Virus record (IMG/VR): IMGVR_UViG_3300037067_013742
Location: 64,001 to 128,000 of that record
Source: a virus
Lineage: Duplodnaviria; Caudoviricetes
Length of the DNA stretch: 64,000 nucleotides
Strand: one strand, 5' to 3'
Positions 1 through 16,262 of this stretch are shown here, in pieces (positions within the stretch are counted from its first letter, which is position 1; every line of letters starts with the position of its first letter). The notes under the pieces were generated by a model, which was not told the DNA's origin, made no database searches, and saw only the letters and a list, made by a program, of their open reading frames with translations. A program made the translations under genes and the position numbers.

Positions 1-2
1 TT

Positions 3-419
3 CAGGAGCGGTTTGTTGCCTATGCTGATGAATTAGATAGAGATGGAAAGTTAGTCAACTCTATGACATTTAGGTCCCAGGTCTCTAAGTTAGTAGAGTT
101 AGATCTCTACGACTATCGTCTGAGTCTCATTCTTGGTGGGGCCGGGGGAACCTCGGATGGATCTCTTCTAATTGAGCAAACAATTGGAATTGATAAGGAT
201 TCTCAAGAGGAGATAAAGCAGGTTCAAGATCATCCCGCATGGAGGATGAAGGTAAAAGTTCAACAGCAAAGGATGGAGCTTTTGGACTCCATGGGCCTTA
301 CCGAAAGAAGGAAGGCCGCTATAGACGCAGCCCTTCATCGTAACAGTGAAGAGAACTTCCTATCTAAGTCGATAGAACTTCTTGAAAGGATCGCCAAGAT
401 AGAGGAAGCTATGGGGTAG
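3..419 (+). CDS. Putative terminase small subunit (P27-like), 5'-truncated by the window edge
   Basis: The frame is open from position 3, upstream of the ATG at 63. The C-terminal HPAWRMK...MELLDSMGLTERRK resembles the (N/H)PA...lGLTP..R pattern of P27-family TerS. It lies upstream of TerL. Confidence 0.5.
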   Translation, partial: QERFVAYADELDRDGKLVNSMTFRSQVSKLVELDLYDYRLSLILGGAGGTSDGSLLIEQTIGIDKDSQEEIKQVQDHPAWRMKVKVQQQRMELLDSMGLTERRKAAIDAALHRNSEENFLSKSIELLERIAKIEEAMG

Positions 420-431
420 GACCATAGCTAA

Positions 432-3400
432 ATGCCTTTTAAGGGTTTCCTCTTCTACGATATCGAGACTCGTCTTCCATCAGGATACGATAAACCTTTC
501 TCTGAAAGTGCTAAGAGGGCCCATCAATTATGGGGCTTTCAGTACAAAGTAACCGGTCTCGATCCCGTTGAATCTGTTACTGAAAAGACCAGGATGCTCC
601 TGGCCAATCCTACTAAGTTCTTATCTCGTAATAAATCTAAAGAAGCTGAGTTCTCGCTTCTAAAGAAAGTTTCTCGTAAATTTAATCCAGACCTTGTTGG
701 GGTTGGCTGGAATAACCAATCTTTTGATGCCCCGGTTCTAGGACATTCTTTTGGAAGAGCTAAGGCTGGCGGGGCCTTTGCCAAAACCCGACAAGTAGAC
801 CTTATGGTCGAAGCCCAAAAGGCTTTTGAAAAGATCTATGGGTTTAAGGGTGGGCGACCCTTCTCTCTTCGTGCCTTTACTAATGACTTAATAGAGGTTG
901 TAACAGAGGGTCTATCTGTAGAAGACAAAGCCTTCTATCTTGCTAGATGGAAGATTAGTGGCGGAAAGGGAAAGATCGCCCTTCGTTCTGGTGAGGAGCT
1001 ATCTGGAGAGAACTACTGGAAGGCTTTAGGCGAAAAGGGAAAGGGAAGTGCTCTAAGAAGTGCTCATAAATATAGTATTAGAGACGTAGACATCCTTCCG
1101 TTCATAGAAGCTCATACTCGTCTTGCTCATCATGCAATAGACGGTTCTGTTGAAGTCAATATGCGGCTTCTAAAGAAGATGAAGAGGTATGAGCAGGCAG
1201 AAGCTGCCGTTAAAGCTTTCCCAGAGTTGTTCAATGGGTCTAATAAGAATGGCCCGAGAATTCAGCTTACTAGTGAAGAGACAACCGGTAAATCCTGGCT
1301 CTCTAAGTGGATGAGAGATGAGGGGAAGAGGGGAAAGCTTGGTCTTGTTACTGGAGATGTAGCGTGGATAGCTAACGATAGAAGAGTTGCTGGAAGTCGT
1401 TCGGGTATCGTCGCCGCGCAAATCAAGTACAGGGGTGAGTACCATCGTTTCGACTTAACCTCTCAGTCTGGCAAGTTGGGAATGTACCAACTTCAACAGA
1501 AGATGGCTTTGGAGATTGGAGATACTAGAGCTCTAAAGAATTTAGAGAAGAGGATTGCCCATCTTACTTACCAGACTCCCTTCTCGGCTATTAATCCCAA
1601 GATTGCCAAAGGTCCCGCTGCGAAGATAGGTACTCGTCTAGCCCGACGCTCTATCCTCTCTCCTGAACTAAGAGAGATTTTTAGTCTTGGTGGTGCAACC
1701 AGACGAGAGATGCTTGCTCCTCGTTTAGAGGGAATGCGGGCAGTAGAGATAGTTCAGAACTATCTGAAAAAGAAAGAGATTCCTCTACTTAGGACTGGAG
1801 ACGATGTAAGAAACTTCCTGGTAAGCAGGAAGATGAATGTTAGTGAAGCTACTAAAGCGGCAGAAGAAATTACCAATACTGGAAAACTTGGCTCATCTTT
1901 CCGTAAGGAGGGAATTGAGGGCGTCTATGTAGCTTCAAGAGAAAAATTAGCCTCTATGGGTTATAAGAAGCCTGGTCTAACTGGGGCTACGATAGCCGTA
2001 CATGAGGCTCTTGAGGGACAGATTAGATCTTCTGGTGGATTAGACGAGGCTTGGAAAACTGTTTCTAGTCATACTAGCCATCGAATTTATGGCGCCGAGA
2101 TGGAATTTGCGGCCATGCTCGGCCCCGATGCGGTTAGGGAGCTTTCTCTTAGAAGAGGTCGGGAGATTGCACAACTAGCTGGAAAGCTAGGGACTCCAGA
2201 GCTAAAGTCTGCTGAGAATTACCTAAGCAATCTGCCGAAGCTCTATCATCAGATCCTAACCAATCGCGGATATTCAAAAGAAGAAGTTTCTGAGTTTATC
2301 GAGCCGTTCCTACATGCTCCGATATCTGGGAAGGCTTCTTCTGTAGCCAAGGCAGCTTCTCAACCAGCAAAGTTAGGAGAGCAGGCTGCTCATACGCTAG
2401 ATGCTTTAGGTCCTGAGTCTAGACTTTTTAAGTTAAGTAAGGGTATTCCACTTGCTATCGGTACTGCTATTGGGGCGGATGTTCTTCTCTCTAAAGATAA
2501 GACTGGGCCATTTTGGGGTGGGGTTGCGGCTATTGGAGCCTTAGTGGGCTCTGGCTTCCTCGCCAAGGGGATGAGCGGCGGGAGGAGGGCTGGTCTTGCA
2601 GGTGCTGCCTACCTAGTCACCAGGCTTATTGTAGGTGGCATTGCGGGTAGTATGGACGCTGGCCATGATCCGGCAATTGAGGGTCTTAACGAAAGTGGGT
2701 TTGCGGGAACTCGTTCTCTTGAAACTGACTTTGGTTCTGGTTGGAAGGGACTAGCCAGTCAGAGACAGCTTCGTTCTATTTTTGCGGGGGATCATCACAT
2801 TAGTCTATTTGGGCCAGCCAGAGCCAGAGTGGGTTTAGCCAGTGCCCATAATTCAATTATAGAAGGTCTTCATGATAATGGCTTTAGTGCTGGTCTAAGG
2901 CATAGAACTACAGACTTTGGATCTGGATTCTCGCGGGCGGCTAGAACAGCAGTTGAAAAGCTCGGCAAGTTCTTTGGAAGAGCGAGGAGAGCAACTACTT
3001 CCAGTACAGTAAAGGCTGTCGAAACTATTATCCCTGAAGTCCCAGAGGGTTTTGCAAGAGCTCTTGATCGTACCGAAGAGGAAGCAAGCGTTATCTGGAC
3101 CAGTCCCGCTGCGCAAAGATGGTGGAACTGGAGAACTAGTCAGTCTGCTGAAAGGATAAACGAGCCAACTGAGGCCATTTTAAATGCCCTCCCTAATAAG
3201 CAGATTCCAAAGACTTTAACTCCAAGGACCTTAGGTGCTAGTGAGTCTCAAGTTATTTCCCCAGCACAAACAACTACCAAGTCTCTAGATAAGATTAGTG
3301 GTCAGTTTGCTAAAAGTCATAATCCGGAGATCATTCCTGGTACTCCCAAGAACCCGGTTTCTGGTGCGGGCGAACCAGTAAATGATGCTAAGTCATGGCT

Positions 3401-4823
3401 TAAAGCTCATAGGATGGGGGTCGGAATTACCCTTGGAGGTCTGACCGCAGCTGGATTAGTAGCTACTGGATGGAGCAGGGCTAGGGCTGATGAACACGAT
3501 TATGCTTATTCGTCTCCTCATGGAGCTTTATATCGGCGGTCACACCCTAGAGCTTTAGAAGGTTTTAGAGCTGGTGGTATGAACGAAAGTCGGAGGAGGG
3601 AATACTCTGACTTTGGTACTGGGCGTGACGCAGTTAGAGGTATAGCTCAGGCCCTTAAGGCAGTCAATGGCTCTGCTCGCAAGATTGGTAAGCGAGCTTT
3701 CCAAGAGTTTCTAGCAGAGCCAGAGTTCCAAGAAGCTCTTAGGACAGGAGAGATAATAGGGAAGCGCGGAGAGGGTGGCTTCGGCTCTGTCTACGAGATG
3801 AAGCAGGTTTATAAAGGTCATACTTTTAAGTATGCCGCAAAGGTTTACGACGACGCGTCTTCCCTAGAGGAAGAGGTTCGTTTTGCAAAAAAGCTTCAAG
3901 ACACTTATACCCCAACAATTTACGGTAAGGGGGAAACAACGACAATTGGTCGTCGGCCTGGTGATAAGCCGGGAAGTGTTGTTTTCATGGAACTTATCGA
4001 AGGCGAGACTGTTGAGCAAAAGATAGCAAAAGGTGAGCTCACTAAAAAAGCAGCCAAGAGTTTAAAGCAGGGAATGGCAGAGGCTCATAAGCAAGGGCTT
4101 GTTCACGGAGATCCCAACATCAAAAACTTTCTAGTAAACCAGTTTGACGAGACGATTATCATCGATGCTATGCCTACATCTTCTAAACTTCCGGGCTTAG
4201 GTGGAAAAACAGGTCACTACGCTAATGAAGTTGGAAGAGTGGCTGATGACTTATCAGTTGAGATGATACTTGGTCATTCGTCCGGTCAGGATATTGAGGC
4301 CTTAAAGCTTTCTACATTTGGAGCGGGGCAAGCGGTCCCTGGTATTATGCAAATGGCAAAGGACCCAAATAAATTCCATAAGTGGGCAACAGGTTTGGCA
4401 AGGGGTCAAAAGTGGGGGTCATCATTTAAAGAAGTTATGTCTCGAGTTTCTTCTCAAACAAGAGAGGCCATCAGGAGAAGTACGCCAGAAGCTTTTGATA
4501 TAGCTGAGGATATCGCCGCGAAAGAGCATTTATATAAAAAGCCAATTTCGGCAGGAGCTCCTCCAGTTTTAAAGAAGGGTGTGGGACAGGGAGATCTACC
4601 TGATTTGGCTAATCTGAAGAATGATCTCTTTATAGCAGAAAAAACCAGGGCTCAGGAGGCCAGTAACTATGCCCAAAGTGTAAACCTAAAAAGTCGAGCC
4701 AGGGAGCGATTACATCAGGCCGCAGTCGAAAGCCAACATATGAAAACTCATCGGTCTAGTCAGATGTCGCAGGGAGTTTCTCCGGTTATAGATAATAACT
4801 ATCTTGTAACTCCAAGAAGATAG
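432..4823 (+). CDS. Polyvalent protein: DEDD 3'-5' exonuclease-like domain, hydrophobic segments, 3 repeats, Ser/Thr protein kinase domain
   Basis: ExoI FYDIET, ExoII GWNNQSFD and degenerate ExoIII AHHAIDGS. Kinase motifs GEGGFGSVY (nt 3768), YAAKVY, VFMELIEG, LVHGDPNIKN (nt 4104) and IIID. Gly/Ala hydrophobic stretches lie between the domains. Confidence 0.8.
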   Translation: MPFKGFLFYDIETRLPSGYDKPFSESAKRAHQLWGFQYKVTGLDPVESVTEKTRMLLANPTKFLSRNKSKEAEFSLLKKVSRKFNPDLVGVGWNNQSFDAPVLGHSFGRAKAGGAFAKTRQVDLMVEAQKAFEKIYGFKGGRPFSLRAFTNDLIEVVTEGLSVEDKAFYLARWKISGGKGKIALRSGEELSGENYWKALGEKGKGSALRSAHKYSIRDVDILPFIEAHTRLAHHAIDGSVEVNMRLLKKMKRYEQAEAAVKAFPELFNGSNKNGPRIQLTSEETTGKSWLSKWMRDEGKRGKLGLVTGDVAWIANDRRVAGSRSGIVAAQIKYRGEYHRFDLTSQSGKLGMYQLQQKMALEIGDTRALKNLEKRIAHLTYQTPFSAINPKIAKGPAAKIGTRLARRSILSPELREIFSLGGATRREMLAPRLEGMRAVEIVQNYLKKKEIPLLRTGDDVRNFLVSRKMNVSEATKAAEEITNTGKLGSSFRKEGIEGVYVASREKLASMGYKKPGLTGATIAVHEALEGQIRSSGGLDEAWKTVSSHTSHRIYGAEMEFAAMLGPDAVRELSLRRGREIAQLAGKLGTPELKSAENYLSNLPKLYHQILTNRGYSKEEVSEFIEPFLHAPISGKASSVAKAASQPAKLGEQAAHTLDALGPESRLFKLSKGIPLAIGTAIGADVLLSKDKTGPFWGGVAAIGALVGSGFLAKGMSGGRRAGLAGAAYLVTRLIVGGIAGSMDAGHDPAIEGLNESGFAGTRSLETDFGSGWKGLASQRQLRSIFAGDHHISLFGPARARVGLASAHNSIIEGLHDNGFSAGLRHRTTDFGSGFSRAARTAVEKLGKFFGRARRATTSSTVKAVETIIPEVPEGFARALDRTEEEASVIWTSPAAQRWWNWRTSQSAERINEPTEAILNALPNKQIPKTLTPRTLGASESQVISPAQTTTKSLDKISGQFAKSHNPEIIPGTPKNPVSGAGEPVNDAKSWLKAHRMGVGITLGGLTAAGLVATGWSRARADEHDYAYSSPHGALYRRSHPRALEGFRAGGMNESRRREYSDFGTGRDAVRGIAQALKAVNGSARKIGKRAFQEFLAEPEFQEALRTGEIIGKRGEGGFGSVYEMKQVYKGHTFKYAAKVYDDASSLEEEVRFAKKLQDTYTPTIYGKGETTTIGRRPGDKPGSVVFMELIEGETVEQKIAKGELTKKAAKSLKQGMAEAHKQGLVHGDPNIKNFLVNQFDETIIIDAMPTSSKLPGLGGKTGHYANEVGRVADDLSVEMILGHSSGQDIEALKLSTFGAGQAVPGIMQMAKDPNKFHKWATGLARGQKWGSSFKEVMSRVSSQTREAIRRSTPEAFDIAEDIAAKEHLYKKPISAGAPPVLKKGVGQGDLPDLANLKNDLFIAEKTRAQEASNYAQSVNLKSRARERLHQAAVESQHMKTHRSSQMSQGVSPVIDNNYLVTPRR
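2676..3626 (+). repeat. Three copies of a ~24-aa motif (I/L)EG(L/F)xxxG(F/M)...R...(T/S)DFG(S/T)G at 2676-2744, 2859-2930 and 3555-3626
   Basis: IEGLNESGFAGTRSLETDFGSGW / IEGLHDNGFSAGLRHRTTDFGSGF / LEGFRAGGMNESRRREYSDFGTGR, read from the translation. Confidence 0.9.
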
Positions 4824-4881: not shown

Positions 4882-5589
4882 ATGGCCTCAGCTAAAGCAG
4901 TTAAAGGAATAGGAACAAGGGTACTTGATTGGGCCGCGGGAAAAGTCGGTCCTCTTGTTGATAAGTATAAAGGAGCTTCTCCAGGATCGTTAGCTTTGGG
5001 AGTAGCTCGTGGAGCTCTGGGGTTCGCTGTTTCTCATCCGGCAGCTATGATGGCCGGAGCTGGAGCTATTGGTGGATATGCAACAACTGGAAACGCCGCT
5101 GGGGGCTTTGCTGGTGCCGGGATTGGCTATCTAAGTGGAAGAAAAGGTTGGGGGAAAAACGATTCTTCTTTTGCAAGGAGGATGGCTAGAGAGTCAGTTT
5201 ATTCAGCTCAGTTAGCAGTTGCCTCTCCAGAAGGTAGGAAATGGATGAGAGGGGGTGTCGCCGCTACTAGGAAGGCACACCCAAAAATAAGTAGAGGAGA
5301 AGCATTCAAGCGATTTGCCACATCACAAGGACGAGCAACCGGGGTTGACGTTGGTAGACAGTGGTCCATTCAACAAGCCGGCCACGTTAAGGGCTGGAGC
5401 CGAGGGCTTAAGATGGCTACGGTAGCTGGGGTTGCTGGTATTGCTGCTGGTGGAACCAAGATGGCTTGGGGTATTGGAACGGACGTTTTTGGTAGCCGTA
5501 AAACTGGTAATTCTTATGGAGCCGAGCGTACCAGTGGCTACGGAGCCTCTTTTAGCGGGATGGGTAATGGGATTGTTGGTGGGTACTGA
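4882..5589 (+). CDS. Gly/Ala-rich basic glycine-zipper membrane protein (possible ejection/pilot protein)
   Basis: GxxxG runs (AGAGAIGGY..AAGGFAGAGIGY; VAGVAGIAAGG), SD GGAG, stop overlaps the next start. Confidence 0.55.
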   Translation: MASAKAVKGIGTRVLDWAAGKVGPLVDKYKGASPGSLALGVARGALGFAVSHPAAMMAGAGAIGGYATTGNAAGGFAGAGIGYLSGRKGWGKNDSSFARRMARESVYSAQLAVASPEGRKWMRGGVAATRKAHPKISRGEAFKRFATSQGRATGVDVGRQWSIQQAGHVKGWSRGLKMATVAGVAGIAAGGTKMAWGIGTDVFGSRKTGNSYGAERTSGYGASFSGMGNGIVGGY

Positions 5590-6437
5590 TGACTGAACCA
5601 GTTATGCCGGCCGGAGTTAGTGCTGAAGAAGCTGCTGCCGCCCAGAATTGGGAGGCTATTCGTGGAAGAATTGGTAACTGGGGAGATAGTGTAGGTCGTA
5701 AGGCCTTTGGAATGAAGGGGGACGTTACTTGGGGGCAGCACTTTTCCAATGCGGCTATGCAGAGCCGACTTGTTGAAGCCGGTTATCTTACGAAGCCCGG
5801 TAGATTTGGTGTAACGAGAGCTCTTGCTAAAGGAGCCGGTCAGGGCTGGCTAAGTGCCTTCTTCCCTGTGTCTCCTCCTATTCCTGCTGGAGGAGCAAAA
5901 GCGGGGAGCAAGATCTTATCTGCACTTCCAAAGGCGTTAAGAGCTCCGGTGGGTATGGTTGGTCGAACTGCCTTAAAGTGGCTTGGGCCAGTTATAACGA
6001 CCTATCGACTTGCTACCGAAACAAAGGGGCTTGGAACTATAGGAAAGATAGATAAGTCCGCTCGGATCTTAGGAGAGGAGGGAGCTTGGGCTGCTGGCGC
6101 TGGCATTGGCGCTGTTTTGGGTTCTGTCGTTCCGGGTATTGGGACTATTGGGGGTATGATTGTGGGCGCTGGTATTGGTTACGTCGGTTCCAAGGCCTGG
6201 AACTTTGGTCTTGACGTAGCAGAGGCTCCAATCCGTATGGCAGCGAGAGGGTGGAATGCTCTTGAGGCCAAAGGTCGTCAAGCAAAGAGGTTAGAGTTAG
6301 GCGGGAGAGTATCTTTAGGAAATACTACTAGTGCTGCTGCAACAATGAGGCAGAGGGCTATTGGAGAGATCTATCGTTCTGGTATTAACCAAAGAAGTAT
6401 TCTTGGCAGAGAAGCTTCTTACATGCATACTCGATAG
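5589..6437 (+). CDS. Glycine-zipper membrane protein (possible ejection/pilot protein)
   Basis: GAWAAGAGIGAVLGSVVPGIGTIGGMIVGAGIG is a glycine-zipper hairpin; TGATG coupling to the upstream gene. Confidence 0.6.
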   Translation: MTEPVMPAGVSAEEAAAAQNWEAIRGRIGNWGDSVGRKAFGMKGDVTWGQHFSNAAMQSRLVEAGYLTKPGRFGVTRALAKGAGQGWLSAFFPVSPPIPAGGAKAGSKILSALPKALRAPVGMVGRTALKWLGPVITTYRLATETKGLGTIGKIDKSARILGEEGAWAAGAGIGAVLGSVVPGIGTIGGMIVGAGIGYVGSKAWNFGLDVAEAPIRMAARGWNALEAKGRQAKRLELGGRVSLGNTTSAAATMRQRAIGEIYRSGINQRSILGREASYMHTR

Positions 6438-6493: not shown

Positions 6494-9400
6494 ATGAGTA
6501 CAGATGCTTCGACTATTTTTTCTGGGCGCATAGGAATTCCAAAGAACTTACATCCAGCTTGTGAAGCCTGTATTGCTAATGCAAGAGAGAAATATACTGG
6601 CTTTATGTCGGACGAGGGTACTTATCACAAAGACGGTTTTGCGGTAAATTGTCCCTATATCCCCCACGACGAAAAGTATTTTCCTGATAAGTTTAAATCT
6701 CAAATGTCTCCAGAAGAATGGGCACTAATGAACAGCCTTAAATCTCCTCTATTATGGGGAGAGGCTAATCTAGTAGACCCAGATAATGGAAAGCCTTGGA
6801 AGGCTTGGGATTATCAGAGGGCTCCTCTTCTTTGTGCAAGTCCTAGAAAATGTTATAGATTTGGTAGGAGAACTGGTAAATGTAGGACCCGAGATTCCGA
6901 TATAACTCTTGCTGATGGGTCAATCAACAAGATGGGAGATTTAGTAGGTCATACATTTTCGGTATGGTCTATAGATCCTAATACTTTTAAATATACGAAA
7001 GTGGCTGCAACGGCTTTTGAGAACGGGGATCAACCTTGTGTTAGGGTTGGAACAAAGTATGGTCATATAATCGAATGTACTCGAAATCACCCTTTTCTAA
7101 CTTGTGATGGTTGGGTTTCTGTAGAAACTGGCTTATCTATAGGCAATAGAATTGCGACACCAATTACAAACCCAAACATTGGGAGTGAGGTGTTTGATAA
7201 AAGGTTACTTTCTCTTCTTGGATATCTTCTTGGAGACGGCAGTTTTTATGATGGATCTAGTTTGGATGTTAGATTTACGGTTTCTATAGAAAGAGAGGAT
7301 GTTCTACAGCATTTTTTGTCTCTACTAAATGGAACATATCGTATTAACAAAAAAGTTCATAATAATTGTAATTGTATAGCTCTTCATATGGATAATGATA
7401 TTGTGTCTATTATCCAAGAGCTTGGGCTTAGGGGGAAAAACTCTCACACCAAATTTATTCCCCCTTTTGTCTTCAAACTTAATTCGGAATGTATTGTAGA
7501 GTTTTTACGACCATTATTTACAACAGATGGGTGGTCGGACAATAGAGGGAATATCGGATACTGCTCAGCATCAAAAGAGTTGGCCACTGGTGTTAAACGA
7601 CTTCTTTCAAGATTGGGAATCGTTTCATCTATAAGGATTAAAACTATAAAGAGTGGAAGGTATTCTGGAAACGAGTATTATACTGTAGACATATGTAACT
7701 ATTCTGAAACAAAAAAGTTCGAGGAGATTATTGGTCTTAAGTATAAGGGCTATAAATATTCTACTTCTTCAGATAGAAATTCTTATAACTCTCAGCTACG
7801 ATCAATGCCAAAAGAGTTTTCGTTTAAGTTTGCGAAGAAGTTAAGAAGGGTTGTCAACACTGTAAAACAACGGAATTCTTTTGGTTATATTAGAGAAGAC
7901 CATGCCGTTGGAAGAGAAGTTCTCACTAAATGGGCAGAAGATCGCCCGGAATATTTTAAAGATGAGCTAACGCTTCTTAATTCTGATCTCTATTGGGATG
8001 AGATTGTTTTTATTGAGGATATAGGAATAGTCCCTACAGTTGGATTAAGCGTTCCAGGAACAGAAAATTACGTAAGTGATGTGGTAGAGCATAACAGCAC
8101 GATCCTTGCCGTAGAGATTCTTTGGTATCTTTTTACTTCTGGTGGGGGAAGGCTACGCGATCCCGATACTGGTCGTGTTCGTCAAAATCTAACGGTAATG
8201 TTATTAGCTCCACAAAAGGTTCACGTAGATAATATCTTCCAGAGAATTAGAGCCTTCTTGACTCTATCTCCAAAGCTTTCTAATAACGTAGCCGCTTCTC
8301 GTCGTGGTTCCCCTCAATATATAGGTTTAAAGACTAAGGATGGTGGAGATGGAAATGGTGTTTCTGGCTTTGCTTCTGGAGATGCTTCTGGTAGTAAGGG
8401 ACTGTCTGGTCGTGGTCAGGACGCTGACTTAATCGTTCTGGACGAAGGAGCGTTCGTATCAGAAGACGTTATGATGAACGTCATTAACCCCATTCTTTAT
8501 ACTCGGCCAACTACATCGTTTATCGTCTCTTCAACTCCTTCTGGTATTTCGGGCGACTATTTCGAAAAGGTTTGTACTCGCAGACCAGACTTTGTAGAGT
8601 TCTATGTTCCCGCCTCGATGAGACCTGACTGGGATAAGGTTAAAGATCAAGTAAGAAAGGACTTCGGTTCTTCTCAAGATGAGTGGAATAAAGAGGTTAT
8701 GGCGGAGTTCTCTCCTGCTGGTATTGGTGTTTATAGAGACGACTTAGTAAAGCTCGCCCAGTCTGACTATGCTTATGGAGATATGCATCGTCATGACGGA
8801 TATATCTATACTTTTGGTATCGATTGGAATAAAGAGCATGGAACTGAGATTGCTGTAGTTGCAACAGCACGTTCTGCTCCTCACGTTTCGTGGACTGCCT
8901 TTACAGAAAACATTCCTAAGGAAGAGTTTACTACTCCTGCTGGCATACAGAGAGTTGTAGAGCTTAATAGGATTTGGCGACCTATGTGGATCTACGCCGA
9001 TGAAGGTGGTGGAGATGGCGCGGCAATGCTTCGTCATCACGGCCGAATGAGCGTTGGCAAGAACCCAATAGACGCCGTCCTTAAGGACATTGTTAAGTCC
9101 TACGATTTTGGATCTAAGCTTGAGATTATTGAGGCTGACGGGACAATGGTTAAATATCCGGCTAAACCCTTTATGGTGGAAAACTCCGTGAAGAAGTTTG
9201 AGCTTGGTGAGTTTAAATATCCTCGTGGTGACTTGCTTCTAACTAAGCAGTTGAATAATTATGTTGTTGATCGGCGTACCCCAGCCGGGATTCCCGTATA
9301 TGCTGTCAAGGAAAAGAAGTGGGGCGATCATAAGTTGGATGCTGTTAACCTTGCTCTTATTGCAGTTAGGTTAGAACTTCCGTCCTTTACTCAAGGGTCA

Positions 9401-9637
9401 GTTGGTTCGATGGGTACTCCAGTTATTTATATCCCAACCGAGCAGGCAAAGAGTGAGCGGGCTATCCTCCCAATGTCTGTCCCAAACAGAAGACTTCCAG
9501 ATTCTTCTATACGATCAGATCCAACCTATGGTAAAAAGGTTGTGGTCCGTTATTGGGGTACGGAACCTAATGAGGCTATTGCAGAAGCTCGGGCGGGTCG
9601 GCGTAATCAACCTCGCGGCAGACGGTTTGGAAGGTAA
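6494..9637 (+). CDS. terL: Terminase large subunit, intein-containing (642-aa spliced product)
   Basis: Walker A GRRTGK/S split by the intein, Walker B LIVLDE, motif III SSTP, and RNase H-like nuclease motifs FGIDWN, YADEGG, DHKLDA. Confidence 0.95.
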   Translation: MSTDASTIFSGRIGIPKNLHPACEACIANAREKYTGFMSDEGTYHKDGFAVNCPYIPHDEKYFPDKFKSQMSPEEWALMNSLKSPLLWGEANLVDPDNGKPWKAWDYQRAPLLCASPRKCYRFGRRTGKCRTRDSDITLADGSINKMGDLVGHTFSVWSIDPNTFKYTKVAATAFENGDQPCVRVGTKYGHIIECTRNHPFLTCDGWVSVETGLSIGNRIATPITNPNIGSEVFDKRLLSLLGYLLGDGSFYDGSSLDVRFTVSIEREDVLQHFLSLLNGTYRINKKVHNNCNCIALHMDNDIVSIIQELGLRGKNSHTKFIPPFVFKLNSECIVEFLRPLFTTDGWSDNRGNIGYCSASKELATGVKRLLSRLGIVSSIRIKTIKSGRYSGNEYYTVDICNYSETKKFEEIIGLKYKGYKYSTSSDRNSYNSQLRSMPKEFSFKFAKKLRRVVNTVKQRNSFGYIREDHAVGREVLTKWAEDRPEYFKDELTLLNSDLYWDEIVFIEDIGIVPTVGLSVPGTENYVSDVVEHNSTILAVEILWYLFTSGGGRLRDPDTGRVRQNLTVMLLAPQKVHVDNIFQRIRAFLTLSPKLSNNVAASRRGSPQYIGLKTKDGGDGNGVSGFASGDASGSKGLSGRGQDADLIVLDEGAFVSEDVMMNVINPILYTRPTTSFIVSSTPSGISGDYFEKVCTRRPDFVEFYVPASMRPDWDKVKDQVRKDFGSSQDEWNKEVMAEFSPAGIGVYRDDLVKLAQSDYAYGDMHRHDGYIYTFGIDWNKEHGTEIAVVATARSAPHVSWTAFTENIPKEEFTTPAGIQRVVELNRIWRPMWIYADEGGGDGAAMLRHHGRMSVGKNPIDAVLKDIVKSYDFGSKLEIIEADGTMVKYPAKPFMVENSVKKFELGEFKYPRGDLLLTKQLNNYVVDRRTPAGIPVYAVKEKKWGDHKLDAVNLALIAVRLELPSFTQGSVGSMGTPVIYIPTEQAKSERAILPMSVPNRRLPDSSIRSDPTYGKKVVVRYWGTEPNEAIAEARAGRRNQPRGRRFGR
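6881..8095 (+). mobile_element. Intein with LAGLIDADG homing endonuclease (405 aa) in the TerL Walker A
   Basis: GK|CRTRDS...VVEHN|S junctions, block B CTRNHPF, LAGLIDADG-like LGYLLGDG and LRPLFTTDG; visibly more AT-rich than the exteins. Confidence 0.95.
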
Positions 9638-10797: not shown

Positions 10798-12453
10798 ATG
10801 GGACTTAGGGATAAAAATCCTTTAATCGATTCAGATCTAGAACTTATCATCACTACCTTTGAAAAGGCGATGATAAAGAGTCGTGATTCTGATAGCGTCC
10901 TGGTTCCTTTTAGACGTCATCTAAATGTTATGGAGGCCCTTCCTACCTCTATCAAGAAGTCAATCAATGATGTCCCAAATCCAGCGAGTGGAGTCGAGCA
11001 GTCTAACGTGGCAATGGCGCCAGCTCCAGATAGTATTATCACCCCTGAGGGAGCGGCTAGCGTTGACTCTGAGTCAAAAGAAGACTCTGAAGATGATGCC
11101 GAGTGGAAAGAAAAAGTTAAGGAGTTACTCGAAGACTGTATCCCCTGTGACTTCAGAAGTTTAACCTCTCTGGATGCCGAGTTCTTTAGTGGGATCGCCG
11201 ATAAGTGGGAGTCCGCTATTGATAAAGCTGGTGAGAGCCTAGATTCGCTAGAGGGTATCTTAGATGGATACAAAGATAAGTTTACCGGTTTGGTGGACCA
11301 GGCTGATGAATTAGTTGATGATATCAAGGCTATAGGGGAGGGTACTACTGAAGAGGGTAAGACCATTTCGGGAGATATAGTTAGTCCCCTCCAAAATATC
11401 TGTGAGATTGGAAATAGTCTAAAAGGTCAGTGCATCCCAGATATAAAGAAAATGATCTTTATGATGGAGATGTTCCTTACTGATATGGAGAACCAGTTCT
11501 CTCTAGACTTAGGTATTGCTGACAGCTTCCTAACTTCTCTATTATCTCCGTTATTTAACGAGATGGTTGGAAATCTCGATATTATTGATGAGCTTGCCCT
11601 GGGTCCAATCAGGTGTGTTCTTAATAGTATCGAACAACAGATTATGCGTGGGGGAGAAGTTGCCGCGCAGGGCTTTGAGTCAGCTACTAATGTTGCCGAA
11701 TCTAGAAATGTCGTAGGGCGGGTTGCAACGAGACGCTCTCAGGAAGACTCCAACTCGATCTTTAATAGTCAGGCAAATCAGACTCCCGCTCGAAGTACTC
11801 GGATGACAAGAGCTGAAGAGCTTGCAGAAAGAGCACAAGCCGAGCAATCAGCCTTAAGACAAAGAGCAGAACGACAAGCTCAACGTGGGAGCGAAAGAAT
11901 TAACAGCGCCTTTGATCGAATGCGTGAGGCTACGACGTTTTTAGATCGGTTTAAGCGTTGTCTACAAACTGCCTTTGACTATCTGGAAGATAAAAAGGAT
12001 TGGTTGATAAATCTTCTAGAAGAACTTGTTTCTACTGGTGACGAGCAGTTTAGCAATAACCTCTCTTTCGCACAGAATAAAAAGGACCTTCTAGAGAACA
12101 TTGCTATCATGAAAGCTCTTGTCGATGCGGCTAAAGCTGGTGGCTTTTCTTGTGGGCCAGAAACTGACTCAATGACTGAGAGTGAGCTTGAGGTCTTCTT
12201 TACGATGTACCAACATCCCTCGGAGTCTTTGGATATATCTGTAATTAATGGTAACATCGTCGTCAGAAGGAATCCAGATGGGCAAAGTGGCTCTGATGGT
12301 AACACTGTGACTACCGGAGCTAGTAGCTCAGGCGCTTCTGGACTTGGAAATATTGTTGTCCAAAGACCGATTTCTTCTTGTTTGAAGAAGGTTACTGCTG
12401 AAGAGGCCGATCAGGTACAGCAGTGGATCGCACAGCTCGAACAGGAAGGCTAG
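10798..12453 (+). CDS. Hypothetical acidic coiled-coil protein with spaced Cys motifs (551 aa)
   Basis: Long helical/heptad stretches; EDCIPCD, NICE, QCIPD, IRCV. Confidence 0.65.
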   Translation: MGLRDKNPLIDSDLELIITTFEKAMIKSRDSDSVLVPFRRHLNVMEALPTSIKKSINDVPNPASGVEQSNVAMAPAPDSIITPEGAASVDSESKEDSEDDAEWKEKVKELLEDCIPCDFRSLTSLDAEFFSGIADKWESAIDKAGESLDSLEGILDGYKDKFTGLVDQADELVDDIKAIGEGTTEEGKTISGDIVSPLQNICEIGNSLKGQCIPDIKKMIFMMEMFLTDMENQFSLDLGIADSFLTSLLSPLFNEMVGNLDIIDELALGPIRCVLNSIEQQIMRGGEVAAQGFESATNVAESRNVVGRVATRRSQEDSNSIFNSQANQTPARSTRMTRAEELAERAQAEQSALRQRAERQAQRGSERINSAFDRMREATTFLDRFKRCLQTAFDYLEDKKDWLINLLEELVSTGDEQFSNNLSFAQNKKDLLENIAIMKALVDAAKAGGFSCGPETDSMTESELEVFFTMYQHPSESLDISVINGNIVVRRNPDGQSGSDGNTVTTGASSSGASGLGNIVVQRPISSCLKKVTAEEADQVQQWIAQLEQEG

Positions 12454-12458
12454 AGCAG

Positions 12459-14585
12459 ATGAGTTGGTTTAGTCGATTTGTTCAGTGGATGTTTAGGCCT
12501 ACCCCTGTTGTCCTAAGTCGGCAAAGTGAGATAACTATTGTAGACCCACCTCTTCTTCCGAGAAAGGCTCAAGATGCAGAGCCTGTTCGTAAGGCTCCTG
12601 TTCCGGGAACTTTAAAAAACCCACGGCCAGAAGAGGTTGTTAAGTCTAGAGGCCTTTCATACTTTACAGTTGAGACTGGTCAGTCTGAGTGGGTCTATCC
12701 TCAGTATGATCATCTGGAAGTTGAAGTAATCTATGACATTGAGTCTTATGCTGCGCGAGCAACAAGGGCAAAGTTAGCCCTCTTCTTAAAAGAGGGATTT
12801 GAGTTTGTAGCTCGTGATGATAAGCGGGCTGATTATATTAGAGCAAGAATCTCTCAGATGGAGAGGGCAACTTGTATCCCATTTGATTTGTTACTATTTC
12901 AGGTGTGCCGTGATCTTATTGTTCACTCTAATGCTTATTGGGTGAAGGTTCGTAAGGAAAGCGCGTCTGGCGGGCGTACAAGGAAACTTGGGAAGAAGGA
13001 AATTAAACCAGTTGCTGGTTACTTTCCACTTCCTCCAGAAACAATGGTTCCACTTGTAGATACATCTAATACTATTGTTTCTTGGAAACAAGTAATTGGC
13101 GATTCGGAAAGAATCTTCTCAACCGACGATATTGTTCACTTTTATACTAATCGTAAGGTTGGTTACCCATTAGGCGTTCCCTCTATCTGGCCGGCAATAG
13201 ATGACATTCGTGCTCTACGAAGTCTTGAAGCAAACTTAGATGTTCTTGTTCATAAACACCTCTTTCCAGTCTTCCTCTGGAAGGTTGGAACCGAAACTCG
13301 GCCGGCTCAGACATATGCTGACGGAACTACAGAGATTTCCGAAATCCAAAGTCGTGTTGCAGAAATGCCAACAGAGGGATCACTTGTAGTATCTGAGCGC
13401 ATAACTGTTGACTCTATTGGCGCAGAGAATAAAGCACTACGAGTTGAATTCTATCTAAAGCATTACGTAGAGAGACTACTTGCTGGTCTCGATGTATCTT
13501 CTATTGACGTTGGAATTGGAGACTCGTCAAGTAGATCTACGGCCCAGACCCTCTCTAGAAATCTTATGGACGTTGTAAAACTTAATCAGATTACAATCGA
13601 ACGGTTTATGGAGAGTGTAATCGCAGAACTACTTCTTGAGTCTACGTTCTCTGAGAAGACAATCTTTGATGCTGATAATCTTGTCCATCTCAAATTCCAA
13701 GAGATTGATAAGGAGGCAAAGCTAGCCAACGGCAATTACCTTATGGATATCTTCATTAAGAATGGAATTACTCATTCTGAAATGAGGGTTGGTATGGGCC
13801 GAGATCCATTAACTCCAGAAGAGGAGATGGATCTTGCCTGGAATAAATGGGATCGAGAGAAGGCTCTTATTACGGCTGGCGACGAAACTCTTGTTTATAA
13901 ATCTGCCCCAACTACGACTGGCCCTACGTCTACAAAGAAGCCGTCTGGCGCGGTTGGTAACAAGAACAGGCCAAAGAACCAGCATGGTACCAGGAAGTCT
14001 CCTAAGTTAAATAGAGACTCTTTTGTTGCGGGGAATAACCCAGATAGTAACCCAATTCTATATTGGTATAACGCTATAAGAGATGAGCTACAGATTAGGT
14101 GGGCCGCAGATAATCGTCTCGACTTGGTTAAGGCTGAAGTAGATATTCGGGCAACCTTTGCTCTTGCCGTAAAGGACATGAATGAAATCCTCCATCGGAT
14201 TATCAGGGAAGAGTATCGAGACCCAGAAACTATCTATGGCATTTATAAGATGGCGGATTCTCGAGTAGAGAGCTATGTAGCTAAGTTGGAGAGAGATCTA
14301 ATTTCTCAGCTAAAGACTAGCTCTTATAGCCCCAACGTTATATTTGAATCTCTTAAGTTCAGAGCTGTACTTATCGGCGAAACCGAGAGGCAATGGGCTC
14401 GTAATGCAGCTTCTCTAAGATGGCTTCGAAAGTTTAAGGTTGACATAGAGATTGTTGGCAGTGATACAATGTGCGATGTATGCAGGTCCAAATTGACCAC
14501 CATTAGGGCGGATGATAGACTCGAAGAAGTTGAGATTCCACCATTTCACCCGCTTTGTGGATGTGGACTAAAGGTTGTTCAGTAG
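12459..14585 (+). CDS. Portal protein fused to a C-terminal MuF-like (head morphogenesis) domain
   Basis: Portal-like motifs DLIVHSNAYWVK, YFPLPPETM, DDIVHF, GYPLGVP, GITHSEMRVGMG. C-terminal CDVC...PPFHPLCGC matches the MuF PPxHPxCxC signature. Start moved to ATG 12459, after the upstream stop. Confidence 0.85.
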   Translation: MSWFSRFVQWMFRPTPVVLSRQSEITIVDPPLLPRKAQDAEPVRKAPVPGTLKNPRPEEVVKSRGLSYFTVETGQSEWVYPQYDHLEVEVIYDIESYAARATRAKLALFLKEGFEFVARDDKRADYIRARISQMERATCIPFDLLLFQVCRDLIVHSNAYWVKVRKESASGGRTRKLGKKEIKPVAGYFPLPPETMVPLVDTSNTIVSWKQVIGDSERIFSTDDIVHFYTNRKVGYPLGVPSIWPAIDDIRALRSLEANLDVLVHKHLFPVFLWKVGTETRPAQTYADGTTEISEIQSRVAEMPTEGSLVVSERITVDSIGAENKALRVEFYLKHYVERLLAGLDVSSIDVGIGDSSSRSTAQTLSRNLMDVVKLNQITIERFMESVIAELLLESTFSEKTIFDADNLVHLKFQEIDKEAKLANGNYLMDIFIKNGITHSEMRVGMGRDPLTPEEEMDLAWNKWDREKALITAGDETLVYKSAPTTTGPTSTKKPSGAVGNKNRPKNQHGTRKSPKLNRDSFVAGNNPDSNPILYWYNAIRDELQIRWAADNRLDLVKAEVDIRATFALAVKDMNEILHRIIREEYRDPETIYGIYKMADSRVESYVAKLERDLISQLKTSSYSPNVIFESLKFRAVLIGETERQWARNAASLRWLRKFKVDIEIVGSDTMCDVCRSKLTTIRADDRLEEVEIPPFHPLCGCGLKVVQ

Positions 14586-14594
14586 GAAGGCGAT

Positions 14595-16262
14595 ATGACT
14601 TTTAACATTAATGAGCTTAAAGACTTCTTCCTCTTTTCGCCTTCCGCGGGGAGAGCTGGTGGTCAGAGTGCAGATCCTAATGCCCGCCAAATGTCCCTTA
14701 CTGGTAAAGGCCTAAAGGTAACTCTTCGGGCCTCTCATGCTGGTATGAGGAATCGCAACTGGACCATGTATGCTCCAGACGGTATGCGCAATAGTTGTCA
14801 TACCTGGGTTTACCCATATCAGAAGCCAGTTCAAGTTCATCATGACGATATGGCCGATCCAATCGGTCGTATCATTGGAGCAAGATACGCCCCCTTCGAA
14901 GCATCTGCTAACCTATCTCAAGATATGGTAACGGCAATGCGTCTTTTTGACGCAGCGAAGTCAGATACAGATATCGTAGATGCCGCAAACCTTCTGGACG
15001 AAGCCGGGGTTCTTGATGGAGAAGACTGGAAGGGCGTTGGAGAGCTACTATTCGATACGGTTATTATGGATGCCGATGCTGCTCAGAAAGTCCTAGATGG
15101 AAGATATCTGACTGTTTCTGTTTCCCAGCATCCAAAGAAGGCCCTATGCTCGATCTGTCATCAGGACTGGGTTGAAAAGGGTCAGTGTAAGCACGAGCGT
15201 GGAGAGGTAGACGAAGAAACCGGCAAGCGGATGTTCTTGATCGTTGGCGACACTCGTGGTACAGAAGTTTCATTTATCAATCATCCCGCTGACGAGTTTG
15301 CTGGGCCTTCAGAAATAAGGCCTATTAGCATTGATCAGCAGGCTGAGGGAGCAGAGCCTCTTAAGGACTTTGTAATTAAGACAGAGGCATTTGTTTCTTT
15401 AGAGCTCTTTGATGCTGAGGAGATTCATACTATGAAGGTAGACGATGTGGCTCCAGTCATCGAACCAACACCAGTTGTAGAGCCGGTGATTGAGCCGGTA
15501 GTCGTAGAGCCTGTTATTACAGAGTCTGTTAAAGAGGAGCCTGTTATTACAGAGCCAGACAAGCCACTAGACCAGACTGTTGCTGAAGCAATGAAGCTTT
15601 TATTTACAGACAGTAAGTTTACTGACGAAGATCTTCTTAGAGAGCATGCTGAGATTGAGAAGGTTCTTGCAGAACGAAATGTTAAGATTGATCACCCTTG
15701 CTCTACCTGTTCCGAGAAGGATGCTCAACTTAAGGACCTGGCTGTTCTTCCAGAAAAGGTTCGTGATCTAGAGGGCACTCTTCGTATTGTTCGTTCAGAG
15801 TGGCAAGAGGTTGTAGCGAGTCAGAAGGTTATGACTGATCTTAATGCCGACACTCTTGTCGAGCTAGAAACTACTCTGAAGAAATACGTAAAGCTTGCAG
15901 AACTAATTCTGGACAAAGACTCTAAGGAAGAGGAGATTGACTCCAAGGTTGAGGCTCTCTCTCTTGATTCTCTCCGTAAGTCTCTTGCAGAAACTGATCT
16001 TACAGAGGCAATTTCATTCATTCGGAGTGGTTTAGTTAGGAAACCAGAAGAAAAGATTACGATTTCTGATGCCGCTCCGGTTGAAATTAAGCCTCTTCCA
16101 ACTGTAGAAGATGCAACTTTAGAGTATGCAAAGCAGCTCGTAAATACTCGTAAACGTTCTGGATTCAGTGCGGCGAATGAATATCTTGGGCAGCTAAAGC
16201 GGAGGGGAAAGTTAGAAAAAGACTTCTCTCTTGCCAAGGCCGAAGAACTTGTGGCAAAATGA
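14595..16262 (+). CDS. Prohead maturation protease with Zn-ribbon insert, fused to a scaffold
   Basis: Between portal and capsid. Motifs RNRNWTMY, PVQVHHD..DPIGRI, YLTVSVS, CSIC...CKH, EVSFINHPAD, then an EPV-rich linker and a coiled-coil C-terminus. Confidence 0.85.
   Translation: MTFNINELKDFFLFSPSAGRAGGQSADPNARQMSLTGKGLKVTLRASHAGMRNRNWTMYAPDGMRNSCHTWVYPYQKPVQVHHDDMADPIGRIIGARYAPFEASANLSQDMVTAMRLFDAAKSDTDIVDAANLLDEAGVLDGEDWKGVGELLFDTVIMDADAAQKVLDGRYLTVSVSQHPKKALCSICHQDWVEKGQCKHERGEVDEETGKRMFLIVGDTRGTEVSFINHPADEFAGPSEIRPISIDQQAEGAEPLKDFVIKTEAFVSLELFDAEEIHTMKVDDVAPVIEPTPVVEPVIEPVVVEPVITESVKEEPVITEPDKPLDQTVAEAMKLLFTDSKFTDEDLLREHAEIEKVLAERNVKIDHPCSTCSEKDAQLKDLAVLPEKVRDLEGTLRIVRSEWQEVVASQKVMTDLNADTLVELETTLKKYVKLAELILDKDSKEEEIDSKVEALSLDSLRKSLAETDLTEAISFIRSGLVRKPEEKITISDAAPVEIKPLPTVEDATLEYAKQLVNTRKRSGFSAANEYLGQLKRRGKLEKDFSLAKAEELVAK
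15507..15554 (+). repeat. 18-bp direct repeat GAGCCTGTTATTACAGAG (EPVITE) in the protease-scaffold linker
   Basis: Exact copies at 15507-15524 and 15537-15554 within a degenerate (V/I)EP array. Confidence 0.9.

Follow-up and report, generated by a model that had tools for sequence, protein, structure and literature searches.

The open reading frame at positions 432–4823 (plus strand) of the window analysed here, a 64,000 nt stretch that corresponds to bases 64001–128000 of the 229,064-bp IMG/VR virus record IMGVR_UViG_3300037067_013742 (rated 100% complete), is intact and encodes a protein of 1463 amino acids (aa), termed P0001. P0001 belongs to a family of giant, modular multi-enzyme proteins that had not been described before and that is present as one gene per phage. 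The family is carried by a clade of large uncultured myoviruses that are distant relatives of Bacillus phage 0305phi8-36. The P0001 chain displays an exonuclease domain at its N-terminal end, a compact kinase-like domain towards the C-terminal end, hydrophobic glycine-rich segments, and three copies of a 35 aa motif situated at the module junctions, referred to below as the junction motif. Coordinates of these features and of the neighbouring genes are in Table 1.

Table 1. Features of P0001 and of genes at its locus. Positions are those of the window; aa, amino acid positions in P0001; pI, isoelectric point; HMM, hidden Markov model; AF2, AlphaFold2; TM, transmembrane.
Feature	Position	Strand	Remarks
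Upstream 238 aa gene (up238), 3′ end	1–419	+	Start lies 297 nt before the window (window −297 to 419; L001:772-1488)
Whole open reading frame, P0001	432–4823	+	pI 9.8, net charge +56, zero cysteine
DEDDy 3′-5′ exonuclease domain, family-B-polymerase type	432–1217	+	aa 1–262; from motifs, AF2, Foldseek and VIA
exoC, small beta-sheet and helix module	1218–1613	+	aa 263–394
Module B, helical	1614–2381	+	aa 395–650; invariant H524-E525-x-x-E528, H547, E578
Three Gly/Ala-rich TM-like glycine-zipper segments	2433–2654	+	aa 668–686, 692–712, 719–741
Junction motif, copy 1	2649–2753	+	aa 740–774, H-D-P-A-I-E-G-L … R … T-D-F-G-S-G-W; motif HMM 37 bits
Junction motif, copy 2	2838–2936	+	aa 803–835; motif HMM 37 bits
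S/T/P-rich variable spacer	2937–3410	+	aa 836–993
Fourth Gly-rich hydrophobic segment	3411–3476	+	aa 994–1015
Junction motif, copy 3	3525–3638	+	aa 1032–1069; about 45 aa before the kinase Gly-loop
Compact protein-kinase-like domain	3729–4421	+	aa 1100–1330; three helices in place of the usual C-lobe
C-terminal tail, basic	4422–4820	+	aa 1331–1463
Two small genes, 235 and 282 aa	4882–5589, 5589–6437	+	Downstream of P0001
TerL with intein carrying a LAGLIDADG domain	6494–9637	+	3′ of the two small genes
Portal	12423–14585		Followed by a protease/scaffold-like gene at 14595–16262, then the major capsid protein

In the exonuclease domain the ExoI motif is D10-I-E12, and its D-x-E pattern is kept in all seven aligned relatives that cover the N-terminus. 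The ExoII motif, N94-N-Q-S-F-D99, lies within the sequence VGWN..FD, and the ExoIII motif is Y214-S-I-R-D218; N94, D99, Y214, and D218 are invariant in the same seven-relative alignment. An earlier reading of this DNA, hereafter the original prediction, had placed a DEDD exonuclease fold here with HHAIDGS as a degenerate ExoIII. H234 of that segment is invariant but D237 is not conserved, and the true ExoIII is Y214-x3-D218. With this assignment the DEDDy set (D10, E12, N94/D99, Y214/D218) is complete.

The fold, as distinct from the ExoIII assignment, is upheld. The AF2 model of positions 1–241 (predicted local distance difference test, pLDDT, 83.5) shows an RNase-H-like exonuclease fold, with E. 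coli ExoI, exonuclease domains of family-B polymerases (RB69), and TREX1/2 as the top Foldseek matches. Superposition by VIA-align on the exonuclease domains of RB69 gp43 and of Pol alpha, delta, and epsilon gives Z = 14–15 and a root mean square deviation (rmsd) of 3.0 Å for about 185 residues; the Pol alpha values are Z = 14.9, 186 residues, and rmsd 3.0 Å. A profile built from the seven relatives matches the TREX1 homologue Plex9.1 (9mrc/9mrd) with an E-value of 1.7e-5 as well as family-B polymerases. Pfam models give no match within the first 1100 residues of P0001, and none to its exonuclease at E < 0.1; the exonucleases of relatives match PF10108, PF13482, and PF03104 at E-values of 1e-4 to 1e-8. 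Together these results establish the DEDDy fold, with what appears to be a full active site, and exonuclease activity is predicted.

The exoC module that follows accompanies either the exonuclease or module B in relatives. Module B is present in 12 relatives, sometimes N-terminal in the place of the exonuclease. Pfam scans of family members give no match to it, the best PDB-profile match is a designed protein (E = 0.01), and no shorter stand-alone homologue was found. From its pattern of invariant His and Glu residues, module B may be guessed to be a candidate metal-dependent hydrolase, possibly a new domain. The four hydrophobic segments, which the original prediction had given as several, are of moderate strength (1.3–1.6 Kyte-Doolittle units). 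The spacer is about 270 aa longer in P0002, a 91% identical relative.

The kinase domain carries G1113/G1115/G1118, K1137, E1148, H1225-G-D1227, N1232, and D1245, the last within D-A-M at the DFG position. K1137, E1148, E1187, D1227, N1232, and D1245 are invariant in 80 of 80 relatives. Taken alone, P0001 scores 22.2 bits (E = 1e-4) against Pfam Pkinase, where the cutoff is 31.7, and its match to a PHROG annotated as serine-threonine kinase is weak (E = 1e-3); P0001 itself lies below every curated family threshold. A profile of the 80 relatives matches DAPK3 with an E-value of 5.5e-20 and many other kinases, the alignment ending just past the DFG position. The AF2 model has a pLDDT of 86, its Foldseek matches are kinases only (E about 1e-9), and Z-scores of 12–13 are found against Rad53, PKR, PknB, YabT, and Rio2. 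The compact kinase of the original prediction, with Gly loop, Lys, HGD..N, and Asp intact and DAM for DFG, is thus borne out in its residues and in its fold.

The domain is nevertheless reduced. No activation segment or APE motif is found in the P0001 kinase, only three helices after D-A-M, and the catalytic loop, H-G-D-P-N-I-K-N, does not have the Ser/Thr-kinase Lys. Set against the features that define a canonical Hanks kinase (PF00069), the P0001 domain lacks the catalytic-loop Lys, the APE, the full C-lobe, and a score at the gathering threshold. The loop consensus of the family, HxDxHxGN, is typical of atypical kinases, and accordingly relatives also match ABC1, APH, RIO, Kdo, WaaY, and Bud32 models. 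Relatives match choline kinase models as well (Pfam/NCBIfam), and one matches PF22303 (OspG-type). The P0001 kinase is a member of the protein-kinase-like superfamily and not a canonical Hanks kinase.

The junction motif and a family of shuffled modules

The junction motif has the form …NTIEGL…G.A…R…TDFGSGW, and the P0001 copies follow the pattern H..(I/L)EG(L/F)…G…R…(T/S)DFG(S/T)G. It is found in 124 of 126 non-redundant family proteins, with one to six copies in each (300–305 instances). Conservation over 305 instances is, in the first part, N 71%, I 73%, E 75%, G 91%, G 95%, and A 72%, and in the rest, R 90%, T/S 92%, F 98%, G 96%, S/T 97%, G 82%, and W/Y/F 88%. The upstream half of the motif follows hydrophobic segments, 82 of 300 copies lying at most 40 residues after one, and the downstream half continues into conserved kinase helices. 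The motif stands directly in front of 108 of 119 kinase domains. Pfam, NCBIfam, and PHROGs hold no model for it, and searches with motif strings gave no relevant literature. Exactly one motif-bearing open reading frame is present in each of 58 related loci.

An exhaustive search with residues 1–1200 of P0001 yielded 86 representatives of the family, and an alignment of motif plus kinase (12 sequences) yielded 55 IMG/VR loci, the longest contig measuring 204 kb. The same alignment gave 48 pattern matches in 185,579 prokaryote genomes, none of them confirmed, and there is thus no sign of prophage copies. The 50,697 cultured-phage records of INPHARED show no match to P0001, in DNA or protein, and none to the canonical relative P0047. 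A single-sequence search of PDB sequences with P0001 gave no match either, so that profiles were needed.

The sizes of family proteins range from 261 to 2418 aa, although contig fragments are among the short ones. The smallest complete form (L005) consists of a 132 aa leader, one junction motif, and one kinase. Kinases are present in 106 of the 126 members, one to three per protein, and hydrophobic TM-like segments in 80. The DEDDy exonuclease is found in 19 of 126. Other nuclease types appear elsewhere in the family: Pfam gives SNase in 12 members, RNase_T in 3, RNase_H_2 in 6, and PolB_exo in at least 4, and PHROGs shows Cas4-like and other endonuclease domains. There are many further modules of 100–600 residues that have no assignment, and the same module families occupy differing positions in different proteins. 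A constant architecture across relatives, named beforehand as an outcome that would speak against the original prediction, is not what is seen; nucleases and kinases are strongly shuffled.

Several individual members show combinations of their own. Two tandem kinases, each with its own junction motif, occur in several proteins, among them P0003, P0005, P0030, P0053, P0056, P0063, P0072, and L035. P0047 carries a DEDD exonuclease and a Cas4-like nuclease in one protein, and P0049 shows a weak DnaJ-like stretch.

Position and composition of the gene product

The P0001 gene opens the head/packaging module and is not directly flanked by TerS and TerL. Its placement in the late head region had been anticipated, and the gene does belong to the terminase-portal-capsid module. 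The further statement that it is inserted between TerS and TerL does not hold. Two genes separate P0001 from TerL, and the TerS label given to up238 finds no match in Pfam, PHROGs, NCBIfam, or PDB profiles. Position was compared over the 58 related loci, in three of which the retrieved DNA shows none of the neighbours tested. Nearly all of them show the same order, i.e. a gp112-like gene, the motif open reading frame, one to three small genes, TerL, three conserved genes, and portal. With the slot constant in this way, the P0001 gene is not an insertion. The stop codon of up238 and the ATG of the P0001 open reading frame are 12 nt apart, and no promoter-like or terminator-like site was found between the two genes. 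TerL inteins are also found in relatives (the P0047 contig, and L004 with a Hint domain).

The portal is 27–34% identical to those of Bacillus phage 0305phi8-36, Moorella phage MTATph1, and Acinetobacter phage ME3, which are the nearest cultured phages by this protein. This identity places the uncultured 229-kb phage in the ancient jumbo-myovirus lineage of these three.

The up238-type gene is always found just before the slot of the basic proteins described below. The up238 family belongs to an acidic lineage and displays four invariant cysteines (C63, C69, C75, C93) and a coiled-coil-like C-terminus. Its profile matches gp112 of 0305phi8-36 with an E-value of 1.6e-35; gp112 is annotated as hypothetical, and gp009 of ME3 is annotated as a gp112 homologue. 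The up238-type gene could encode a Zn-binding chaperone/adaptor or an unrecognised TerS. The 282 aa gene adjoining TerL was considered as TerS and dropped; it carries a long glycine-zipper segment.

The original prediction gave P0001 a long basic region. The charge is there, however it is not confined to one region, as every domain of P0001 is basic (pI 9.4–10.1). The structural proteins encoded around P0001 are nearly all acidic (pI 4.2–6.9) and contain cysteine. At the local background of 0.77% Cys, the chance of finding none in 1463 aa is 1.3e-5. The family as a whole has a median pI of 9.5 and shows 25 Cys in 135,689 residues (0.018% vs 0.77% in neighbouring genes), with 109 of 126 proteins free of Cys.

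The 235 and 282 aa proteins encoded downstream have pI values of 10.9 and 10.7, are Cys-free, and contain long glycine-zipper segments. The profile of the 282 aa gene matches gp115 of 0305phi8-36, a weak homologue (E = 1e-6). Both products are likely to be ejection/pilot proteins that belong to the functional set of P0001. A median pI of 10.5 is seen in related loci for the genes that lie between the motif open reading frame and TerL. Elsewhere in the window just one further large protein is without Cys, a 1577 aa protein (35991–40724, pI 8.8) adjoining a tape-measure-like gene, and in composition it resembles the proteins of the putative ejected set.

In 0305phi8-36 this slot, between gp112 and TerL, encodes four proteins, gp113–gp116, each of which is basic (pI 9.1–9.8) and Cys-free. 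The GenBank annotation, from which virion status is taken here, gives gp113, gp114, and gp116 as proteins identified in virions by mass spectrometry. ME3 genes in the same slot are likewise basic and Cys-free. The basic Cys-free composition, the fixed slot, and the 0305phi8-36 virion proteins together therefore lend indirect support to a reading in which P0001 is a packaged effector. The analogy with 0305phi8-36 is the strongest support, again indirect, for regarding the slot as one for internal virion (ejection) proteins, with P0001 as its enzyme-loaded occupant.

Proposed virion cargo and other explanations

The explanation favoured here, at a probability of roughly 0.55, is that proteins of the P0001 family are virion cargo, made with the head proteins, packaged, and ejected into the host, where they act as nuclease and kinase effectors. 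P0001 would be co-expressed with the head proteins and packed in the capsid beside the DNA, together with the two downstream glycine-zipper proteins, a location that its basic charge would suit. At infection it would exit through the tail. Such an exit would explain a chain that is basic, Cys-free, and unfoldable, and in being unfolded and without Cys it would be like other proteins that undergo translocation. The Gly-rich hydrophobic segments may then insert into the cytoplasmic membrane at the entry site, with both enzyme domains turned to the cytoplasmic side and active before any phage gene is expressed. The number of hydrophobic segments is even, so the two enzymes can share that side. 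The nuclease would target host or competitor nucleic acids, and the kinase would phosphorylate host proteins, as the T7 kinase does in disarming defences. The junction motif would be processed or handled, perhaps by a cut at (I/L)-E|G, so that the modules work as separate units.

The role of the junction motif is the weakest step of this explanation. The motif straddles module junctions and all its copies are within one open reading frame, which fits a signal for processing or handling; such a signal, letting modules act separately, is the most likely function. The conserved I/L-E|G, at aa 749–752, 810–813, and 1042–1045 of P0001, is a plausible cut site. An extension of the idea, offered tentatively and at odds well short of even, is that P0001 and its relatives are effector polyproteins. 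Each genome would encode one such protein, in which interchangeable enzyme cassettes (nucleases, kinases, and others) are joined by a junction signal that is cut or recognised after packaging or ejection, releasing several independent effectors in the host, membrane-anchored or soluble.

A number of observations weigh against the cargo explanation and the part given to the motif in it. The motif occurs in none of the other open reading frames of the 229-kb genome, and in the AF2 model it is of low confidence (pLDDT 58–67). Its core, [ILV]EG[LFMIV], was found at one unrelated site in ten nearby head-module proteins and is absent from capsid, portal, and protease; a general prohead protease cut is therefore unsupported, though not refuted. 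The 0305phi8-36 slot proteins match none of the motif, kinase, exonuclease, or module B profiles and are positional analogues only, and Cys is scarce generally in that Bacillus phage. The catalytic loop of the kinase resembles those of small-molecule and atypical kinases (APH, ABC1, Kdo, RIO, Bud32) as much as those of protein kinases. Nucleases packed beside the genome would have to be kept inactive. The cultured-phage records contain no family member, and because none is in culture, the virion association, i.e. packaging and ejection, and the anti-defence role are inferred.

Since packaging is a putative step, P0001 might be a non-virion protein of the inner membrane, made late in the infected cell and serving as a superinfection-exclusion or host-shutoff factor. 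Its nuclease would degrade host DNA or that of a superinfecting phage, and its kinase would modify envelope or defence components. The four TM-like segments, their occurrence in the same 80 of 126 relatives counted above, an even segment number that puts both enzymes on one cytoplasmic side, and the similarity of the kinase to kinases of the Kdo or lipopolysaccharide (LPS) type are all consistent with this. However the segments are Gly/Ala-rich and moderately hydrophobic, like those of ejection and tape-measure proteins, and neither the fixed terminase-portal slot nor the family-wide avoidance of Cys is expected for an ordinary inner-membrane enzyme. The basic Cys-free composition is, moreover, common to the 0305phi8-36 slot proteins that are annotated as virion components, and a membrane protein of this kind appears unlikely. 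A DNA packaging or maturation accessory, with a nuclease that helps the nearby terminase by trimming or resolving concatemers and a remainder that is regulatory, would account for the shared strand and tight spacing with the terminase genes and for the recurrence of nuclease domains in the family. But the type of nuclease varies (DEDDy, DEDDh, SNase, Cas4-like, or none detected), DEDDy being found in the minority counted above, whereas the constant parts are the junction motif and the kinase. Known packaging machines have no place for membrane segments or multiple kinases, and this explanation is very improbable.

A different question is what the kinase acts on. P0001 may be packaged and ejected as proposed, with a kinase whose substrate is a small molecule or lipid (an LPS or lipid head group, a nucleotide, or a signalling molecule) and a nuclease that removes nucleotide-based defence signals rather than DNA. 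The loop without the Ser/Thr-kinase Lys, the missing activation segment and APE, the matches of members to ABC1, APH, Kdo, RIO, WaaY, choline kinase, and Bud32, and the closeness of the kinase domain to the membrane all point this way. On the other hand, the best profile and fold matches are to protein kinases (DAPK with the E-value of 5.5e-20; Rad53, PKR, and PknB with Z about 13), and minimal effector kinases of the OspG type, also without a full C-lobe, do phosphorylate proteins. This reading as a whole, packaging combined with a kinase that acts on something other than protein, is considered quite unlikely.

If proteins of the P0001 family are virion cargo, then pre-made nucleases and kinases join the enzymes that large phages deliver before transcription, and counter-defence by a kinase, so far shown for an early T7 protein, is extended to the time of DNA entry. 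The junction motif offers a sequence tag by which cargo of this kind can be found in metagenomes (here about 125 non-redundant proteins, all unannotated) and is a testable candidate for the means by which multi-enzyme cargo is divided into working units. Near-total Cys avoidance is a measurable signature, and could help to predict ejected proteins in other uncultured phages. Should the polyprotein extension be true as well, the logic of viral polyproteins and polymorphic toxins would be new for the virion cargo of tailed phages.

Comparison with known systems

The single domains of P0001 have counterparts that occur separately. The exonuclease shares its fold and catalytic motifs with stand-alone PolB-exonuclease-like DEDDy nucleases (PF10108, PF13482), and the kinase shares its own with the minimal kinases Bud32, RIO, and OspG/NleH, which are also without most of the C-lobe. 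In P0001 both are found in one chain of 1463 aa, putatively membrane-associated.

The T7 kinase phosphorylates many host proteins and disarms defence systems (PMC13645617). This protein, gp0.7 (T7K), is a phage kinase that acts on host proteins and serves as a model for the possible function of the P0001 kinase module. T7K differs in that it is soluble and expressed early, has no nuclease or membrane segment fused to it, and is encoded outside the head module.

Further parallels are large enzymes that travel in the capsid and enter the host along with the DNA, namely P1 DarB, T4 Alt, the N4 virion RNA polymerase together with ejection proteins, and the head ejection proteins of phiKZ and SPN3US. 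Ejection proteins carry membrane-active segments, and P0001 has membrane-like segments. In giant phages, many head ejection proteins are cut by the prohead protease (PMC10052503, PMC13434306). No sequence relation of P0001 to these packaged enzymes or ejection proteins was found, and P0001, as putative packaged cargo, differs in the combination of exonuclease with kinase and in the repeated junction motif. The three 0305phi8-36 virion proteins gp113, gp114, and gp116 occupy the P0001 slot and are of the same basic Cys-free type, but at 181–248 aa they show no detectable enzyme domain or motif, and the likeness is positional and compositional only.

A close parallel is with the polyvalent proteins of phages and conjugative elements, which are proposed to be injected with the DNA, and some of which have kinases with a reduced C-terminal part (Iyer et al., 2017; PMC5512222). 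Like P0001, polyvalent proteins are very large, are encoded with head genes, and combine unrelated enzyme domains, including nucleases and kinases of the Ser/Thr/Tyr superfamily, in a variable architecture. Several unrelated catalytic domains per protein, in an architecture that varies among relatives, are likewise found in the P0001 family. No MuF or other hallmark polyvalent domain is detected by Pfam in P0001 or in family members; the P0001 gene has its constant place in the terminase-portal module. The kinases differ too. In the clade described for polyvalent proteins there is an insert between the catalytic His and Asp and the C-terminal subdomain is lost as a whole, whereas H-G-D is contiguous in P0001 (H-x-D in the family) and the C-lobe is reduced, not absent. 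The P0001 family, without a confirmed match in the 185,579 prokaryote genomes, is confined to uncultured large lytic phages, as against prophages of Verrucomicrobia and Bacteroidetes. Membrane segments, the 35 aa junction motif, Cys avoidance, and a fixed slot before TerL are outside the description of polyvalent proteins. Thus the P0001 family works like the polyvalent proteins and yet is separate from them, with features not described before.

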